DNA from: Octopus vulgaris
Taxonomy: Eukaryota
Direction: 5' to 3'
Length of the DNA: 64,000 nucleotides
Assembly: GCA_951406725.2 (NCBI GenBank)
Contig: OX597822.1
Location: 109,244,001 to 109,308,000 of the forward strand
Shown: in pieces, positions 5,927-15,697 of the stretch
Position numbering within the stretch: the stretch's first letter is position 1
How the letters are laid out: every line of letters starts with the position of its first letter
Notes under the pieces: model-generated
What the model saw: only the letters and a program-made list of their open reading frames with translations
Told to the model about the DNA's origin: nothing
Databases searched by the model: none
Made by a program: the position numbers and the translations under genes

Positions 5927-7670
<1,744 letters not shown>

Positions 7671-8284: not shown

Positions 8285-8354
8285 CAGAAATATATACACA
8301 AACACATACGAATGTATAAACCTGTGTATATATTTATATATATATTTATTTTTC

Positions 8355-8461
8355 CGTGACCGACAAGGCTATCAGATGTTGCTACACATCGCTAGCCAAA
8401 ATGCGGTTCGCATTGTTTTAGCCTTCAAATAACGCCACCCTGCTGGCTAAGCGAGCAGGCC
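8355..8461. repeat. 107-bp interspersed-repeat fragment, copy 2
   Basis: Direct copy of 7828-7934. Confidence 0.85.
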
Positions 8462-8482
8462 ATATATATATATATATATATA

Positions 8483-8900
8483 CTCTTTTCTCTCTCTTTT
8501 TTACTCTTTTACTTGTTTCAGTCATTTGACTGCGGCCATGCTGGAGCGCCGCCTTAAATCGAGCAACTCGACCCCGGGACTTATTCTTTTGTAAGCCCAG
8601 TACTTATTCTATCGGTCTCTTTTGCAGAACCGCTAAGAAGCGGAGACATAAACACACCAGCATCTGTTGTCAAGCAATGCTAGGGAGACAATCACAGACA
8701 CACAAAGACACACACGCATGTATATATATACATATATACGACGGGCTTCGTTCAGTTTCCGTCTACCAAATCCACTCACAAGGCATTGGTCGGCCCGAGG
8801 CTATAGCAGAAGACACTTGCCCAAGTTGCCACGCAGTGGGACTGAACCCGGAACCATATGGTTGGTAAACAAGCTACTTACCACACAGCCACTCCTGCGC

Positions 8901-8901
<1 letters not shown>
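8483..8901 (-). mobile_element. tRNA-derived SINE, family A (long, with internal microsatellite)
   Basis: Minus-strand head ggcgcaggagtggctgtgtggtaag...ggttcagtccc has A/B-box-like motifs; conserved body; aaagagt-type tail; homologous to the copies at 14888 and 19565. Confidence 0.92.
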
Positions 8902-8936
<35 letters not shown>

Positions 8937-8940
<4 letters not shown>

Positions 8941-11900
8941 CAACAATTGAGGGTAAAATTAATTAATTATTAATCAATTTCACCAAGTATTCAGTATGTA
9001 AAGGGACCATTATAGGCGAATTCAAAATATTACATTATATATAAGGGCTTAGTAAAATAAATTACTTTGCCACATACTGAACTCATTAGAAATAGCAGCT
9101 AAAGAAATTTCTTCAGCTATTTCTAATACTTAAAGAAGATCTCTCTCAGATAGTGTTTGCCTAAACCAACTCACAAAAGTATGGGGGAAAAAAATATTAA
9201 AAAATCAAGTGCAAAGGTTATTTGAGAACGTACGTTTCTAGATTAGTCAATTCGACATTTCTTTCTTCAGCTCAGAATTCCTTGAATCGGATTTGGGAAC
9301 ACTGAAAGTCGGGAGCATACCCTTTCGGCTTCTAATCACCTCTAGAATTCTGCTCGAACTAAAAGTGCTATCAAATTCGAATATGCAAGCGAAGAATTTC
9401 TGCTCTCCCCTTTCCACCAGCGTGGGTTAAAATTGACAAACACCATGTATTAACGGTGAAAACCGCAGCATTTAACAGAGAGAGATGAATTATAATTTCA
9501 ACAATTGAGGGTAAAATTAATTAATTATTAATCAATTTCACCAAGTATTCAGTATGTAAAGGGACCATTATAGGCGAATTCAAAATATTACATTATATAT
9601 AAGGGCTTAGTAAAATAAATTACTTTGCCACATACTGAACTCATTAGAAATAGCAGCTAAAGAAATTTCTTCAGCTATTTCTAATACTTAAAGAAGATCT
9701 CTCTCAGATAGTGTTTGCCTAAACCAACTCACAAAAGGTATGGGGGAAAAAACATTAAAAAAAAAATCAAGTGCAAAGGTTATTTGAGAACGTACGTTTC
9801 TAGATTAGTCAATTCGACATTTCTTCTTCAGCTCAGAATTCCTTGAATCGGATTTGGGAACACTGAAAGTCGGGAGCATACCCTTTCGGCTTCTTAATCA
9901 CCTCTAGAATTCTGCTCGAACTAAAAGTGCTATCAAATTCGAATATGCAAGCGAAGAATTTCTGCTCTCCCCTTTCCACCAGCGTGGGTTAAAATTGACA
10001 AACACCATGTATTAACGGTGAAAACCGCAGCATTTAGCAGAGAGAGATGAATTATAATTTCAACAATTGAGGGTAAAATTAATTAATTATTAATCAATTT
10101 CACCAAGTATTCAGTATGTAAAGGGACCATTATAGGCGAATTCAAAATATTACATTATATATAAGGGCTTAGTAAAATAAATTACTTTGCCACATACTGA
10201 ACTCATTAGAAATAGCAGCTAAAGAAATTTCTTCAGCTATTTCTAATACTTAAAGAAGATCTCTCTCAGATAGTGCTTGCCTAAACCAACTCACAAAGTA
10301 TGGGGGAAAAAACATTAAAAAATCAAGTGCAAAGGTTATTTGAGAACGTACGTTTCTAGATTAGTCAATTCGACATTTCTTTCTTCAGCTCAGAATTCCT
10401 TGAATCGGATTTGGGAACACTGAAAGTCGGGAGCATACCCTTTCGGCTTCTAATCACCTCTAGAATTCTGCTCGAACTAAAAGTGCTATCAAATTCGAAT
10501 ATGCAAGCGAAGAATTTCTGCTCTCCCCTTTCCACCAGCGTGGGTTAAAATTGACAAACACCATGTATTAACGGTGAAAACCGCAGCATTTAGCAGAGAG
10601 AGATGAATTATAATTTCAACAATTGAGGGTAAAATTAATTAATTATTAATCAATTTCACCAAGTATTCAGTATGTAAAGGGACCATTATAGGCGAATTCA
10701 AAATATTACATTATATATAAGGGCTTAGTAAAATAAATTACTTTGCCACATACTGAACTCATTAGAAATAGCAGCTAAAGAAATTTCTTCAGCTATTTCT
10801 AATACTTAAAGAAGATCTCTCTCAGATAGTGCTTGCCTAAACCAACTCACAAAAGTATGGGGGAAAAAAAATTAAAAAATCAAGTGCAAAGGTTATTTGA
10901 GAACGTACGTTTCTAGATTAGTCAATTCGACATTTCTTTCTTCAGCTCAGAATTCCTTGAATCGGATTTGGGAACACTGAAAGTCGGGAGCATACCCTTT
11001 CGGCTTCTAATCACCTCTAGAATTCTGCTCGAACTAAAAGTGCTATCAAATTCGAATATGCAAGCGAAGAATTTCTGCTCTCCCCTTTCCACCAGCGTGG
11101 GTTAAAATTGACAAACACCATGTATTAACGGTGAAAACCGCAGCATTTAGCACAGAGAGATGAATTATAATTTCAACAATTGAGGGTAAAATTAATTAAT
11201 TATTAATCAATTTCACCAAGTATTCAGTATGTAAAGGGACCATTATAGGCGAATTCAAAATATTACATTATATATAAGGGCTTAGTAAAATAAATTACTT
11301 TGCCACATACTGAACTCATTAGAAATAGCAGCTAAAGAAATTTCTTCAGCTATTTCTAATACTTAAAGAAGATCTCTCTCAGATAGTGTTTGCCTAAACC
11401 AACTCACAAAAGTATGGGGAAAAAACATTAAAAATCAAGTGCAAAGGTTATTTGAGAACGTACGTTTCTAGATTAGTCAATTCGACATTTCTTTCTTCAG
11501 CTCAGAATTCCTTGAATCGGATTTGGGAACACTGAAAGTCGGGAGCATACCCTTTCGGCTTCTTATCACCTCTAGAATTCTGCTCGAACTAAAAGTGCTA
11601 TCAAATTCGAATATGCAAGCGAAGAATTTCTGCTCTCCCCTTTCCACCAGCGTGGGTTAAAATTGACAAACACCATGTATTAACGGTGAAAACCGCAGCA
11701 TTTAACAGAGAGAGATGAATTATAATTTCAACAATTGAGGGTAAAATTAATTAATTATTAATCAATTTCACCAAGTATTCAGTATGTAAAGGGACCATTA
11801 TAGGCGAATTCAAAATATTACATTATATATAAGGGCTTAGTAAATTAAATTACTTTGCCACATACTGAACTCATTAGAAATAGCAGCTAAAGAAATTTCT

Positions 11901-11959
11901 TCAGCTATTTCTAATACTTAAAGAATATCTCTCTCAGATAGTGCTTGCCTAAACCAACT
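8937..11959 (-). mobile_element. Tandem array of ~558-bp hammerhead-bearing non-coding units (5.4 copies); retrozyme-like/PLE-derived
   Basis: Units start atttcaacaattgaggg at 8937, 9495, 10057, 10613, 11170 and 11725 (periods 558, 562, 556, 557, 555). Units are near-identical, have no ORF, and carry an HHR-like motif on the minus strand; the array begins directly after (TA)n. Confidence 0.9.
9223..9274 (-). ncRNA. Type-I hammerhead-like motif (further copies at 9785-9835, 10341-10392, 10898-10949, 11453-11504)
   Basis: tgag-CTGAAGA-a aga aat gtc gaatt gac taa tct a-GAAAC-gtac-GTT-ctca. Stem I is tgag/ctca, stem II is imperfect, loop 3 is palindromic GTAC. Confidence 0.7.
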
Positions 11960-12683
11960 TTAATGTTTTTTCCCCCATACTTTTGTGAGTTGGTTTAGGC
12001 AAGCACTATCTGAGAGAGATCTTCTTTAAGTATTAGAAATAGCTGAAGAAATTTCTTTAGCTGCTATTTCTAATGAGTTCAGTATGTGGCAAAGTAATTT
12101 ATTTTACTAAGCCCTTATATATAATGTAATATTTTGAATTCGCCTATAATGGTCCCTTTACATACTGAATACTTGGTGAAATTGATTAATAATTAATTAA
12201 TTTTACCCTCAATTGTTGAAATTATAATTCATCTCTCTCTGCTAAATGCTGCGGTTTTCACCGTTAATACATGGTGTTTGTCAATTTTAACCCACGCTGG
12301 TGGAAAGGGGAGAGCAGAAATTCTTCTCTTGCATATTCGAATTTGATAGCACTTTTAGTTCGAGCAGAATTCTAGAGGTGATTAGAAGCCGAAAGGGTAT
12401 GCTCCCGACTTTCAGTGTTCCCAAATCCGATTCAAGGAATTCTGAGCTGAAGAAAGAAATGTCGAATTGACTAATCTAGAAACGTACGTTCTCAAATAAC
12501 CTTTGCACTTGATTTTTTAATGTTTTTTCCCCCATACTTTTGTGAGTTGGTTTAGGCAAGCACTATCTGAGAGAGATCTTCTTTAAGTATTAGAAATAGC
12601 TGAAGAAATTTCTTTAGCTGCTATTTCTAATGAGTTCAGTATGTGGCAAAGTAATTTATTTTACTAAGCCCTTATATATAATG

Positions 12684-12689
<6 letters not shown>
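11960..12689 (+). mobile_element. Inverted arm (~1.3 units) of the 558-bp array
   Basis: Reverse complement of the unit sequence, ending in (TA)n. It forms a ~700-bp-arm palindrome with a 28-nt spacer (11960-11987). Confidence 0.93.
12443..12494 (+). ncRNA. Type-I hammerhead-like motif, plus-strand copy
   Basis: tgagCTGAAGAaagaaatgtcgaattgactaatctaGAAACgtacGTTctca read directly on the + strand. Confidence 0.7.
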
Positions 12690-12742
<53 letters not shown>

Positions 12743-13667
12743 ATATATATATCTGTTAGTGTATACAAATTCGAGTAGATGATATATTAGTACCTGTGAG
12801 TTATATATTTATATTTGAATTTCATTTTTTATATTGCTTCAACTACTATAGCCACACTCCTGTTTTGTTTGCATCTAATTTTTTTTATTTCTGTAATTTT
12901 TTTGCGAAGAACATCAGTGATAATTGTCATATGTCATACTTTTACAAGTCATTAATCGTTAGGCTATCACGAAGATAATTCAGTAAATATAAATAACATT
13001 GTTATCCTGTTGAAATAACTATGAAAATATTGAAATGTTCTGCATTATCATTAGTTTATTCCACTGATAAATAAATCACATTCAATATTGAAAATAATTT
13101 GATGTTATTGACTCGTTGTTTATGATGTGGGTAAACGGTAGCTAACTTTCCAATAATTTTAATCCTCCCCGTAGGAATTTACTTCACTAATGTTGAAAAC
13201 AAATAATTTATTAATTTATTGACAGGAACCTTTGAAATGATTGTATACGTGCTACTGGTGGAAATATATAATAGAAACGTCTGTGTAATAAGCAGTACTT
13301 TATCTGGTCATAATACAATGACATATAAATATGTCAGCACCTTGGATAAATTTCTAGGTTTGATCATTGTTCTTTTTCATCATGCTTCCCTCAATTTGTA
13401 CACACATGCTTTATTCGCATATGACCACAACACCTCACAACAAATCTGCAATGACTTGAAGAAAGGGCATCTGAGATACAACCTGAAATTAAGCTCCACG
13501 AATCTTAACTGAATCACAATCAAACAACACTGTATCGAATTCAAGCAACCATTATTATGTACAGCATGCGTGTAGAACCTTACGTGTCACCAGAGGTTTG
13601 GGGCTCCGCCATATCGGATGGCTTCAGCAAGGAATTTTCAAGTATATATGCAATATTAACTAAACGA

Positions 13668-14885: not shown

Positions 14886-15063
14886 AGGAGGGGCTGAGTG
14901 GTAAGTAGCTTGCTAACCAACCACATGGTTCCGGGTTCAGTCCCACTGCGTGGCATCTTGGGCAAGTGTTTCTTCTATATCCCCGGGTCGACCAATGCCT
15001 TGTGAGTGGATTTGGTAGACGGAAACTGAAAGAAGCCTGTCGTATATATGTATATATATATAT

Positions 15064-15693
15064 ACTAAGTAATTAAGGGTTTAGCAACGAATTGCCTCAC
15101 CAACACACCGAATTTAGAAATAGCAGTCAAAGAGATATAGCTATTCATTCTACTAAAAGGGGGATCTCAGTAAAAACACAGCACTTGAAAGGCAAACACA
15201 GACAGGTAAGAAAGAAAGAATGAAATGACGGCAAGCTACCTACGGACGTACGTTTCGAGATCAAGTTTTAGGATAGCATAAGAATTAGAAAATTCTACTT
15301 TACCCAAACTTCTTCTCTCATCGGCGCAGGATACCACAATTGTGAATAATTGTATATTAAATTTTGAGATACTAGAATGCATCATCTCAACTCAGTGTCA
15401 GAGCGAGCCAAAGCATGACCAGTACCACGAAATTCAAAGTTTGAATGAAAGTTTGCGTCACCAGCCCCCTTCCACCCGCGTGTAGCCAAGAGATCCCCCT
15501 TTTAGTAGAAGGAATAGCTATATCTCTTTGACTGCTATTTCTAAATTCGGTGTGTTGGTGAGGCAATTCGTTGCTAAACCCTTAATTACTTAGTATTACT
15601 TAAATTTTCCTCGAATGGGGCTTTTACATGCCGAAATCTACTTGGTGTAATTGATAATTATCCCTAATTAATTAAGTTCACCCTTTATTATTA

Positions 15694-15697
<4 letters not shown>
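15064..15697. mobile_element. Two-armed hammerhead element homologous to the 558-bp unit
   Basis: Arm 15064-15490 plus inverted arm 15491-15697; about 105 bp shared in inverted orientation. Shares ttaattaatta, caccaagta, aaggg-ttag, ttagaaatagcag, acgtacgtttc and cccc-ttccacc blocks with the array unit. Confidence 0.88.
15239..15330 (-). ncRNA. Type-I hammerhead ribozyme with extended stem II
   Basis: cctgcg-CCGATGA-[gaga..aagttt gggta..agaatt ttct aattct..tatcc..aaactt..tctc]-GAAAC-gtac-GTC-cgtagg. 6-bp stem I, U4C core variant, GUC cleavage triplet. Confidence 0.85.

Follow-up and report, generated by a model that had tools for sequence, protein, structure and literature searches.

The 3.75-kb block at positions 8938–12689 of the window, a 64,000-nucleotide stretch of Octopus vulgaris contig OX597822.1, is a single insertion of a 557-nt repeat within (TA)n that consists of two head-to-head arms. 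The insertion is probably a non-coding tandem retroelement whose arms were reverse transcribed from both 3′ ends of the target on one RNA, starting at two sites 94 nt apart, and were joined centrally. Within its abundant Penelope-type family, for which more than 1800 candidate copies were counted, the insertion is an ordinary member, and the event is an insertion of the type made by Penelope-like elements (PLEs) rather than the product of a new repair pathway.

The coordinates of the insertion and its flanks are listed in Table 1, and all unit positions (q) refer to the reference unit at 11960–12516. The tandem period was 555–562 nt across the 5.4 + 1.3 non-coding units, the GC content of the unit was low (34.5%), and the left-arm units were 99.1–99.6% identical to the reference. 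The left arm extends from an outer end in the TA-rich site q256–267 to an inner end at q29, and the segment 11959–12132 is 100% identical to 12516–12689. No stop-to-stop ORF of at least 130 aa, and thus neither a reverse transcriptase (RT) nor a GIY-YIG endonuclease, was found in 8938–12689, so that the element can at most be a non-autonomous passenger. The two window arms differ at q368; comparison of the units showed 0–5 differences per unit, which are too few to judge in-register matching from the outer ends. Along the left arm the family alleles form a mosaic, which sets the window copy apart from 38 of the 39 other loci and is unexplained by one homogeneous template.

Table 1. Features of the two-armed insertion and its flanks, in window positions
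Feature	Position	Strand	Remarks
Left flanking (TA)n	8905..8937	.	Immediately preceded by the head of a tRNA-derived SINE copy; sequence reading
Left arm	8938..11959	-	5.44 tandem 557-nt units, 3022 nt; motif-bearing (sense) strand is minus
Tail (q174–267)	8938..9026	-	At the outer end of the left arm only; right-arm outer end without tail
Left-arm hammerhead-like cores (five, one per unit, within 9227..11500)	11457–11500, 10902–10945, 10345–10388, 9789–9831, 9227–9270	-	1-nt deletion in 9789–9831
Head-to-head junction	11959..11960	.	Left-arm q29 against right-arm q1; 0 overlap, 0 filler
Right arm	11960..12689	+	1.31 units, 730 nt; sense strand is plus; outer end q173 (...TATATAATGTAATAT)
Right-arm helix I strands	~12434–12446 and 12491–12503	+	Motif-based
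Right-arm hammerhead-like core	12447..12490	+	CTGAAGA, helix II, GAAAC-GTAC-GTT; motif match
Predicted cleavage site of right-arm core	12490/12491 (q531/532)	+	Motif-based
Right flanking (TA)n	12690..12752	.	Sequence reading

Sequence comparison agreed with the first-pass annotation that the region is a large inverted repeat with arms meeting at 11959/11960, and that the right junction lies in AT-rich unit sequence (...cccttatataataatgtaatat|(TA)n at 12689/12690, with a (TA)n of ~41 units at 12673–12752). The left junction had been misplaced at 11725: the string found there, gaattataatttcaacaattgag, is internal unit sequence that recurs in every unit, and the arm continues through five units to 8938, where it adjoins (TA)n in the same unit phase as that string. 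The inverted repeat consists of the two unequal arms of Table 1 instead of a ~700-bp palindrome, and the proposed 28-nt spacer (11960–11987) is made up of unit positions 1–28 of the right arm, which look like a spacer because one arm stops at unit phase q29 and the other at q1.

We surveyed 40 independent copies of the family, which were the best-scoring 40 of 1822 candidates and therefore a biased sample; they comprised the window, 22 of 30 loci (eight were removed as duplicate places), and 17 further loci. Additionally, we scored 18 loci of sister families, 82–97% identical to the unit and likewise biased, as they were chosen because a strand switch was present; a local autonomous PLE contributed another 46 loci. 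The family copies included 23 two-armed and 17 single-armed copies, with arms spanning 0.17–5.44 units. Joint counts below refer to 38 two-armed copies, namely these 23 and 15 interpretable sister-family copies.

Across the 40 family copies, the sense-3′ (outer) ends fell only in two TA-rich sites of the unit, at ~q173 (q164–174) and ~q267 (q256–267), which lie 94 nt apart. The outer junction was fuzzy inside each site (q160–177 and q256–267), and the sense-5′ (inner) ends were scattered from q13 to q540. Each unit has a single CTGANGA...GAAA motif, which in both window arms is found on the outward-reading strand, as the first-pass annotation had it, and the same orientation was found when further copies were collected: the motif-bearing strand pointed outward in 38/38 two-armed copies. 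Among the first 100 motif matches, adjacent strand switches were outward in 24 of 25 (probability 7.7 × 10^-7; hand count), these 25 switches overlapping with 14 loci selected from the same motif list.

The two classes of outer end were combined within copies in a nearly invariant manner. Ends at q173 and q267 were paired in 22/23 two-armed family copies, with no homotypic pair and one ambiguous copy (L022), and in 14/15 interpretable copies of the sister families. The total of 36/38 has a chance probability of 2.7 × 10^-9 even when p is given its most favourable value of 0.5, and the q174–267 tail was present at one outer end only in 36/38 copies. Exceptions include L082, a true q267/q267 copy, and L087, which has four arms. 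Single arms favoured q173 (15/17), and independent choice of the two sites would therefore predict mostly q173/q173 pairs. In a single case (L039), the q267 arm was exactly q174–267 and ended where a q173-primed duplex would begin.

The same architecture was found in the local PLE, an abundant family encoding a GIY-YIG endonuclease and RT, and the sole family followed from the 6136 candidates of a GIY-YIG search. It ends in (TA)n at one of two sites, A and B, of which B lies 35 nt beyond A, as compared with 94 nt between the two sites of the window family. Two-armed copies (L069, L098, L104, L123, and L131) paired A with B in 5/5, each with the 35-nt tail at one end only; in the exceptional locus L109, two site-A ends face each other across (TA)9. 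Both the extra 35 nt of the local PLE and the q174–267 segment of the window correspond to the PLE 'tail' as described by Craig et al. (2021; PMC8557442) and in PMC11167929. The local PLE showed neither BLAST similarity to the unit nor a match to the hammerhead-like motif. At L055 only, a 71–74% unit-like fragment was observed, which looks like a nested older copy.

These end classes bear on the possibility that a single primed PLE cDNA acquired its inverted arm by self-priming, snap-back, or template switching. Self-priming has been proposed for palindromes at rotifer Penelope junctions (Arkhipova et al., 2013; PMC3846280), and symmetric inner junctions do exist (q18/q18 at L023 and q3915/q3915 at PLE locus L123). 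Snap-back, however, predicts the same terminal class at both ends together with an inverted copy of the same flank, whereas the observed ends differed in the 36/38 copies and in 5/5 copies of the local PLE, and the flanks were unrelated. Self-priming also fits poorly with the right arm of the window, which begins with q1–28, positions never reached by the 3′ end of the left-arm cDNA, and with arm lengths that were unequal in both directions, the q267 arm being the longer one in 13/22 two-armed copies (hand count). We consider such an origin of the second arm unlikely.

Both arms of a copy carried the same allele at family-polymorphic sites in all informative loci (19/19 at q44 and 12/12 at q283), indicating that the arms are not two independent insertions. 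The arms adjoined directly, with 0–13 nt between them and no TA run, in 23/23 family copies; their inner junctions showed overlaps of 0–6 nt or, in 4/23 copies, filler of 1–13 nt, and L021 showed an overlap of 21 nt located in the internal palindrome of the unit. Two separate insertions of opposite orientation into one (TA)n hot spot would leave this direct abutment, the 24:1 orientation bias, and the concordant alleles unaccounted for, and do not predict the q173/q267 pairing. Although (TA)n is a strong hot spot and compound loci occur, as at L087, where a short TA run lies between two of the four arms, and at L109, this reading is very improbable.

Outer ends adjoined (TA)≥4 in 74/80 cases for the family and 33/36 for the sister families (107/116 together), far above the (TA)n background of ~5% of flanking or window sequence, in line with the (TA)n flanks expected in the first-pass annotation. 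By hand reading, most of the 17 single-armed copies also adjoined (TA)n at their variable 5′ end, which suggests that (TA)n was the pre-existing target; alternatively, (TA)n may have been extended during insertion. No empty allele was seen, and contigs of public runs break within the (TA)n of the flanks. The suggestion of RNA-templated repair at microsatellites was not favoured over endonuclease-driven insertion, since the local GIY-YIG PLE family also ends in (TA)n.

That (TA)n tracts are fragile and, at ~5% of the sequence, abundant could also suit an origin at the DNA level. The block would then be a satellite or a DNA transposon of the fold-back type, or a broken (TA)n tract would have been repaired by DNA synthesis with a copy of the repeat, ectopic or extrachromosomal, as template. 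Long inverted arms of tandem sub-repeats with variable lengths are likewise found in fold-back DNA transposons and palindromic satellites, and DNA transposon derivatives also show internal deletions with microhomology and filler. The RNA template is suggested by features of genomic sequence, namely strict strand asymmetry and variable 5′ truncation, which leaves some room for such an origin. Unlike those of fold-back transposons, however, the termini q173 and q267 are not inverted repeats of each other and have unrelated sequences. Single-armed copies with one fixed and one variable end were common (17/40), a structure impossible by cut-and-paste. The strand polarity was strict: with a double-stranded template, a (TA)n 3′ end could anneal to both strands of the near-palindromic TA sites and prime there, whereas antisense-reading arms starting at a TA site numbered 0/63. 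The RT-encoding PLE also shares the architecture, and we regard a DNA-level origin as distinctly unlikely.

Contigs of four DNA runs were only ~60-nt pieces, none of those listed spanned 11959/11960, and thus there is no independent read support for the junction. An assembly or chimeric-read artefact is nevertheless scarcely credible. Adapter-skipping would be symmetric, whereas the window arms are unequal (3022 versus 730 nt), stop at different phases, have different unique flanks, and differ at q368. Moreover, the same rule held elsewhere in the repeat superfamily (37 further loci) and in five PLE loci, all of which have junctions of their own, and the structure agrees with one published for PLEs.

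In vitro, a purified Anolis PLE protein cleaved and extended both strands. Reverse transcription began inside the RNA, at a pair of adjacent sites separated by the genomic 'tail'; the sites lacked homology to the cut DNA, and no strand difference in their use was reported (Frangieh et al., 2024; PMC11167929). Both-strand extension, the q173/q267 pairing (36/38), and the concordance of arm alleles (19/19) together support the twin priming proposed in the first-pass annotation. In the mechanism that we propose, the template would be RNA in the form of a circle or of a multimeric read-through transcript, and the enzyme a PLE RT with GIY-YIG endonuclease, possibly a dimer on one RNA; an autonomous PLE would presumably act as the partner in trans. 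Once (TA)n is cut, each of its two 3′ ends would prime reverse transcription on the same RNA, with q173 as the start for one active site and q267 for the other. The two cDNAs would then be joined through microhomology at their 3′ ends, and second-strand synthesis of each would use the other as template. The hammerhead-like motif would mark the RNA strand and is not required by the model. The q173 and q267 sites are possibly coupled in one complex, as their pairing in genomic copies suggests. Because the in vitro start sites were non-homologous to the cut DNA (PMC11167929), TA microhomology may not be the determinant here.

A tentative generalization, which we place close to but short of an even balance, is that in every PLE-type integration the two target strands are extended from different neighbouring start sites on one RNA. 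Such coupled twin priming, of which a dimeric RT-endonuclease could be the agent, would also explain the one-ended tail, the inverted copy, and the partial tandems.

Next to the arm architecture, we characterized the motif itself, which reads CTGANGA...GAAA or CTGANGA...GAAACGTACGTT and occurs once per unit. A search for the motif gave 2028 matches versus one in a reversed control. All core nucleotides were present, with N7 varying (A, C, or U), and the foot pair of helix II was A·A or U·U. The proposed helices were 98.9% paired versus 31–56% in slid controls, with two compensatory pairs, for a structure that was drawn from the same sequences. RNAalifold recovered helix II and the outer stem of helix I with the core paired differently, and the thermodynamic fold of the motif region (MFE -6.5 kcal/mol, z = +1.71) was no better than that of shuffled sequence. 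The hammerhead ribozyme label of the first-pass annotation was not borne out by Rfam, which returned no hammerhead match for the unit at the gathering score in the whole window, at E ≤ 10 in 8300–13000, or on a 181-nt stretch; at E ≤ 1, two sister-family loci (L082 and L076) and two PLE loci (L070 and L069) were negative as well. A distant relative at 15239–15330 matched the full Hammerhead_1 model with 18 bits (E = 0.061), below the gathering score of 34. The motif is hammerhead-like and the ribozyme putative; a literature search on octopus hammerhead ribozymes returned nothing relevant. Rfam miRNA-like matches at 11921–12027 merely reflected the hairpin formed by the inverted junction. A template RNA ending at the predicted ribozyme cut (q531/532) was also considered and rejected, as 5′ ends showed no enrichment there and only 2/17 single arms had 5′ ends nearby (q539 and q540).

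The units resemble metazoan non-LTR retrozymes in their low GC content, their non-coding tandem arrangement, and the type-I-hammerhead-like motif that each of them carries (PMC7229834; preprint 10.64898/2026.07.22.740005). The motif also has a 2-bp helix III capped by the palindromic loop GUAC and a helix II mismatched at its base, both as in axolotl retrozyme ribozymes (PMC7229834). Metazoan retrozymes carry a type I hammerhead ribozyme in each unit and are expressed as self-cleaved or circular RNA; the window motif was not recognised by Rfam. In the abstract of their preprint, Li, Clavereau and Pollet (2026; 10.64898/2026.07.22.740005) argued that retrozymes are non-autonomous PLE derivatives. 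The two-armed geometry embedded in (TA)n is absent from PMC7229834, in which neither 'inverted' nor 'microsatellite' occurs, and is not described in the preprint, where each word occurs once in an unrelated context.

The mechanism of PLE integration is still described as unresolved. The first biochemical study (2024; PMC11167929) reported both-strand extension and two start sites and left unsaid how they combine within a single event. The genomic copies supply this missing read-out, with one template variant per copy and almost always one start site per arm. This one-site-per-arm rule is a concrete and testable constraint on the integration complex; such near-obligatory pairing was not found in the PLE literature searched, and a search on twin priming in Penelope returned nothing on the subject. 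Elements of this kind confuse repeat annotation and assembly, and the rule for annotating them is two outward 3′ ends with the tail on one. If coupled twin priming is true, retrozyme-like repeats and PLEs would have colonised the (TA)n microsatellites of this genome on a large scale, and a single rule would join three long-unexplained signatures of PLEs and retrozymes.

In the twin priming that Ostertag and Kazazian are said to have described for human L1 in 2001, the 3′ end of the second target strand reportedly primes on the same RNA, and the two cDNAs are joined by microhomology to give an inverted segment; the inverted and the direct segment of the product reportedly cover different parts of one RNA, and poly(A) is present at a single end. 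The window family is alike in this working principle, and its geometry, allele identity, and junction microhomology fit priming from both ends. It differs from L1 in its enzyme family, in that both outer ends are 3′ ends, and in that the second start site is a defined neighbour of the first. Unlike in L1, the contents of the two arms overlap, which would follow from a repetitive or circular template.

The closest likeness is to PLE insertions themselves. PLEs have been described with a tail at one end only, inverted 5′-truncated copies, and a (TA)n bias (PMC8557442; PMC3846280), in agreement with the first-pass remark that inverted partial repeats are known for PLE insertions. The window family shares with known PLE insertions the 5′ truncation, the partial tandems, the head-to-head inverted copy, the one-ended tail, and the AT-rich or (TA)n targets (PMC11167929; PMC8557442; PMC3846280). 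It differs in its tail of 94 nt, as against 30–40 nt in the PLE literature, and in being a pure non-coding 557-nt tandem, whereas autonomous PLEs code for RT and endonuclease. The two start sites of the family are rich in TA and lie directly against (TA)n, whereas those of the Anolis PLE were reported as non-homologous to the cut DNA (PMC11167929). With the in vitro PLE reaction, it would have in common two adjacent start sites and two strands that are both cut and extended (PMC11167929).

The insertion consists of a 557-nt non-coding tandem repeat unit arranged in two inverted arms between (TA)n tracts. The first-pass annotation had described twin-primed inverted arms at 11725..12689; the meeting point of the arms was confirmed, and the boundaries were revised, the structure being larger than claimed. 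Position 11725, previously taken as the left junction, lies inside the unit (q~262-275; positions are numbered q1-q557 on a reference unit, window 11960-12516, plus strand) and is repeated in every unit; the true left end at 8937/8938 shares its unit phase, but adjoins genuine (TA)n. Repeat finders showed that 11959-12132 is 100% identical to 12516-12689 and, given this match, the "28-nt spacer" reported between the arms corresponds to q1-28 of the right arm. The inner stops of the arms are at q29 (left) and q1 (right). Among contigs from four DNA runs, only ~60 nt each, none bridged the arm junction. The unit has a GC content of 34.5%, and no ORF of at least 130 aa was found within the insertion block 8938-12689.

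Features of the two-armed insertion in the window
Feature	Position	Content	Basis
Left flanking (TA)n	8905-8937		
Left arm	8938-11959	5.44 head-to-tail ~557-nt units	Sequence read and repeat finders
Head-to-head arm junction	11959/11960		
Right arm, inverted relative to left arm	11960-12689	1.31 units	Sequence read and repeat finders
Right flanking (TA)n	12673-12752	About 41 repeats	

Each unit contains a single CTGANGA...GAAA motif, and the strand bearing it (the sense strand) reads outward in both window arms. The motif probably represents a type I hammerhead variant, here regarded as putative, and serves the insertion argument solely as a strand marker. It had no Rfam hammerhead match at any threshold tried, and its region folded no better than shuffled sequence. 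The pattern CTGANGA-N15-35-GAAACGTACGTY gave 2028 genome matches versus 1 for a reversed control; these matches fall in several sister families, and N7, the sole free core position, is A, C, or U. Across 21 aligned variants, a drawn three-helix structure was 98.9% paired versus 31-56% with slid partners and showed compensatory changes at two pairs, figures that derive from the same sequences from which the structure was drawn, with the core columns set by the search pattern. Axolotl retrozyme ribozymes, as described in the available part of PMC7229834, likewise show a mismatch at the base of helix II and a 2-bp helix III whose GUAC loop is palindromic. Elsewhere in the window, a distant relative carries a minus-strand motif at 15239-15330 with a U4-to-C change; against the whole Rfam Hammerhead_1 model it scored 18 bits (E=0.061), where the gathering score is 34.

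To survey the unit family, we searched the 2.8-Gb genome (227 contigs), which contained 1822 candidate matches, and scored the best 40 places. Eight of 30 loci were removed as duplicates (five from the array in the window itself, plus L007, L015, and L029, which duplicated L006, L013, and L022); the kept loci, 17 further fetched places, and the window constituted a sample of 40 independent copies, among which L026 and L043 are possibly non-independent (they share a left flank and are separated by 14 kb). Twenty-three copies were two-armed and 17 single-armed. The outward orientation of the sense strand in both arms, proposed from the window, was reproduced in 23/23 two-armed copies, and strand polarity was strict in 63/63 arms, at odds with a double-stranded DNA template, which would not produce it. 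An assembly artefact would likewise not account for the arms, as it would be symmetric and would lack rule-bound recurrence at more than 40 loci.

All sense-3' ends were located in two TA-rich sites, q164-174 (...CCCTTATATATAATGTAATAT) or q256-267 (...CAATTGTTGAAATTATA), the exact outer junction being fuzzy inside each; sense-5' ends were spread over q13 to q540 and directly abutted (TA)n in most single-armed copies. One ~q173 end was paired with one q267 end in 22/23 two-armed copies, with no homotypic pair; in the remaining copy (L022), one arm breaks off at q147 and adjoins non-TA sequence. Which arm is longer varies: in 13/22 it was the q267 arm. Inner junctions showed 0-6 nt of overlap or, in four cases, 1-13 nt of filler, and one had a 21-nt overlap within the unit's internal palindrome. 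Single arms ended at ~q173 in 15/17 copies and at q267 in 2/17; given this preference, independent site choice would yield mostly q173/q173 pairs. Snap-back or self-priming, the latter favored by Arkhipova et al. for PLEs (Penelope-like elements) in the available text of PMC3846280, cannot yield the differing terminal classes or unrelated flanks.

The same pairing was examined in 18 sister-family loci (75-98% identical to the unit), of which 14 were picked for a strand switch and four for divergent motif variants. A q143-176 end was paired with a q267 end in 14/15 interpretable two-armed copies, with L082 as a genuine q267/q267 exception; L087 is four-armed, and divergence prevented calls for L088 and L089. 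Heterotypic pairs thus accounted for 36/38 two-armed copies of the unit and sister families, with a probability of 2.7e-9 even at p=0.5. Among the first 100 motif matches, all on contig 1, 24/25 adjacent strand switches were minus-then-plus, that is, outward.

We then compared alleles between arms at three family-polymorphic positions, q44 (A/G), q283 (C/T), and q368 (G/T). All units were allele-identical in 38/39 loci other than the window (L031 was mixed at q368), and the two arms were concordant at q44 in 19/19 informative loci and at q283 in 12/12. This agreement is consistent with a single template, or a single homogeneous source, for each event. Two independent insertions per locus were ruled out by the same agreement. 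The window left arm is an exception: from inner to outer unit, its alleles are G,A,G,G,A,A for q44 and T,C,C,C,T for q283. This mosaic possibly reflects a multimeric template that was itself heterogeneous, a switch between templates, or subsequent conversion.

A (TA)n run of at least four repeats was present within 25 nt of 74/80 outer ends in the unit family and 33/36 in the sister families; some misses were boundary errors from looser BLAST settings, and clearly non-TA ends were L006 left, L018 right (SINE), and L022 right. As background, runs of at least five repeats occupied 5.4% of the window and, beyond 300 nt, 4.8% of 126,996 flank bases. The (TA)n tract was presumably present before insertion as the target.

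Such tracts, about 5% of sequence, seem to accumulate mobile elements from several unrelated families. A tRNA-derived SINE copy (8496-8905) adjoins the (TA)n beside the window insertion, similar sequence occurs in the flanks of L011, L020, L034, and L036, and the sister-family copy L077 carries a foreign SINE-like element ending in (GAT)n (1962-2146) within the q161-170 TA-rich site of its left arm. The window also contains an older, distant two-armed copy at 15066-15696 (68.5% identical to q56-258; arms 15062-15168 and 15490-15596, 99% complementary), with a q173-type left and a q267-type right outer end and TA runs at both; the minus-strand motif at 15239-15330 described above belongs to this copy. 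Another inverted pair, 6014-6326/6848-7160 (313 nt, 99% complementary), is separated by (TA)59 at 6664-6780 and belongs to a repeat different from the 557-nt unit. Public runs under six organism labels contained 38-77% of sampled words of window 11700-12700, in one sample within runs of only 29-51 million letters, so the family probably occurs in many copies in several related species.

A GIY-YIG search returned 6136 candidates, among them numerous copies of a 781-aa RT-GIY-YIG ORF preceded and overlapped by a 479-aa frame. These belong to an abundant local family (L070:1481-6272 and related loci), a canonical PLE with an endonuclease, about 4.7 kb long, whose partial tandem pLTRs contain repeated TGATGACGTC motifs. 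Neither Rfam nor the motif pattern detected a hammerhead in this PLE, and no sequence or motif shared with the 557-nt unit was detectable, so it is a candidate partner at most. Its two-armed architecture was the same as that of the 557-nt repeat. The 3' end lies against (TA)n at one of two sites, A (...TTTTTTACAAATATATA) or B (...CCTATTATAAATAT), the latter 35 nt beyond A, and tandem junctions showed that the extra 35 nt are the first bases of the element. Among 20 loci found with 3'-terminal DNA, single arms ended at A in 14 and at B in three, and one locus was uncalled. Over all PLE loci examined, A was paired with B, facing outward, in 5/5 two-armed copies readable at both ends (L069, L098, L104, L123, and L131). 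L109:855-3169 shows the usual layout inverted: the site-A 3' ends of two copies point inward with (TA)9 between them, and the truncated 5' ends adjoin (TA)n at the outer sides, probably through two separate hits in one microsatellite.

Outward arms, site pairing, and arm allele identity support the twin-priming interpretation of the first-pass annotation; from this observed pattern, we infer that the template was RNA, which enzyme acted, and that the two starts are coupled. In the simplest account, a PLE ribonucleoprotein would make cuts in each strand of a (TA)n tract, one 3' end would prime cDNA at the q173 site, and the other would prime at the neighboring q267 site of the same RNA, which may be a read-through multimer or a circle. 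Because both ends would prime on one RNA, both cDNAs would be antisense and attached at opposite sides of the break. Their 3' ends would meet by few-base annealing or filler joining, each then being copied with the other as template, giving outward arms, a one-end tail, variable inner junctions, and the same alleles in both arms. Heterotypic pairs could be explained by site alternation along repetitive or circular RNA or, alternatively, by a dimeric enzyme on one RNA. In a single case (L039:2380-2474), the q267 arm is exactly q174-267, stopping where a q173-primed duplex would begin and matching the remnant expected if the second polymerase ran into the first priming site.

The insertion in the window is nothing unusual within its abundant family, and the process is PLE-type integration, outlined biochemically in 2024, and not a new repair pathway. 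What is new is the near-obligatory pairing whereby each arm takes one of the two start sites on a single template, found in 36/38 two-armed copies of the non-coding repeat and 5/5 of the autonomous PLE, among best-scoring copies and sister-family loci chosen for strand switch, with L082, L087, L109, and the mosaic window array as exceptions. This pairing was absent from the literature searched: a search combining twin priming with Penelope returned nothing on the subject, and "inverted" and "microsatellite" are both absent from the retrozyme paper PMC7229834 and occur once each, in unrelated contexts, in the accessible text of Li, Clavereau and Pollet (2026, 10.64898/2026.07.22.740005), which makes the case that the retrozymes of animals derive from PLEs and are non-autonomous. 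In the accessible sections of Craig et al. (2021, PMC8557442), PLEs are described as 5'-truncated and partially tandem, with an inverted 5'-truncated copy next to them and a "tail" of 30-40 bp, often at one end only; a (TA)n bias is given for Naiad and Hydra, an insertion bias is hypothesized for Neptune, and the mechanism is termed undefined. The purified Anolis PLE protein, predicted to be dimeric, cleaves and extends both strands, and the ribozyme is dispensable in vitro (Frangieh et al. 2024, PMC11167929). In that system, start-site use showed no strand difference and the start sites no homology to the cut DNA; reverse transcription began from two adjacent internal RNA sites, and the tail was equated with the sequence between them.
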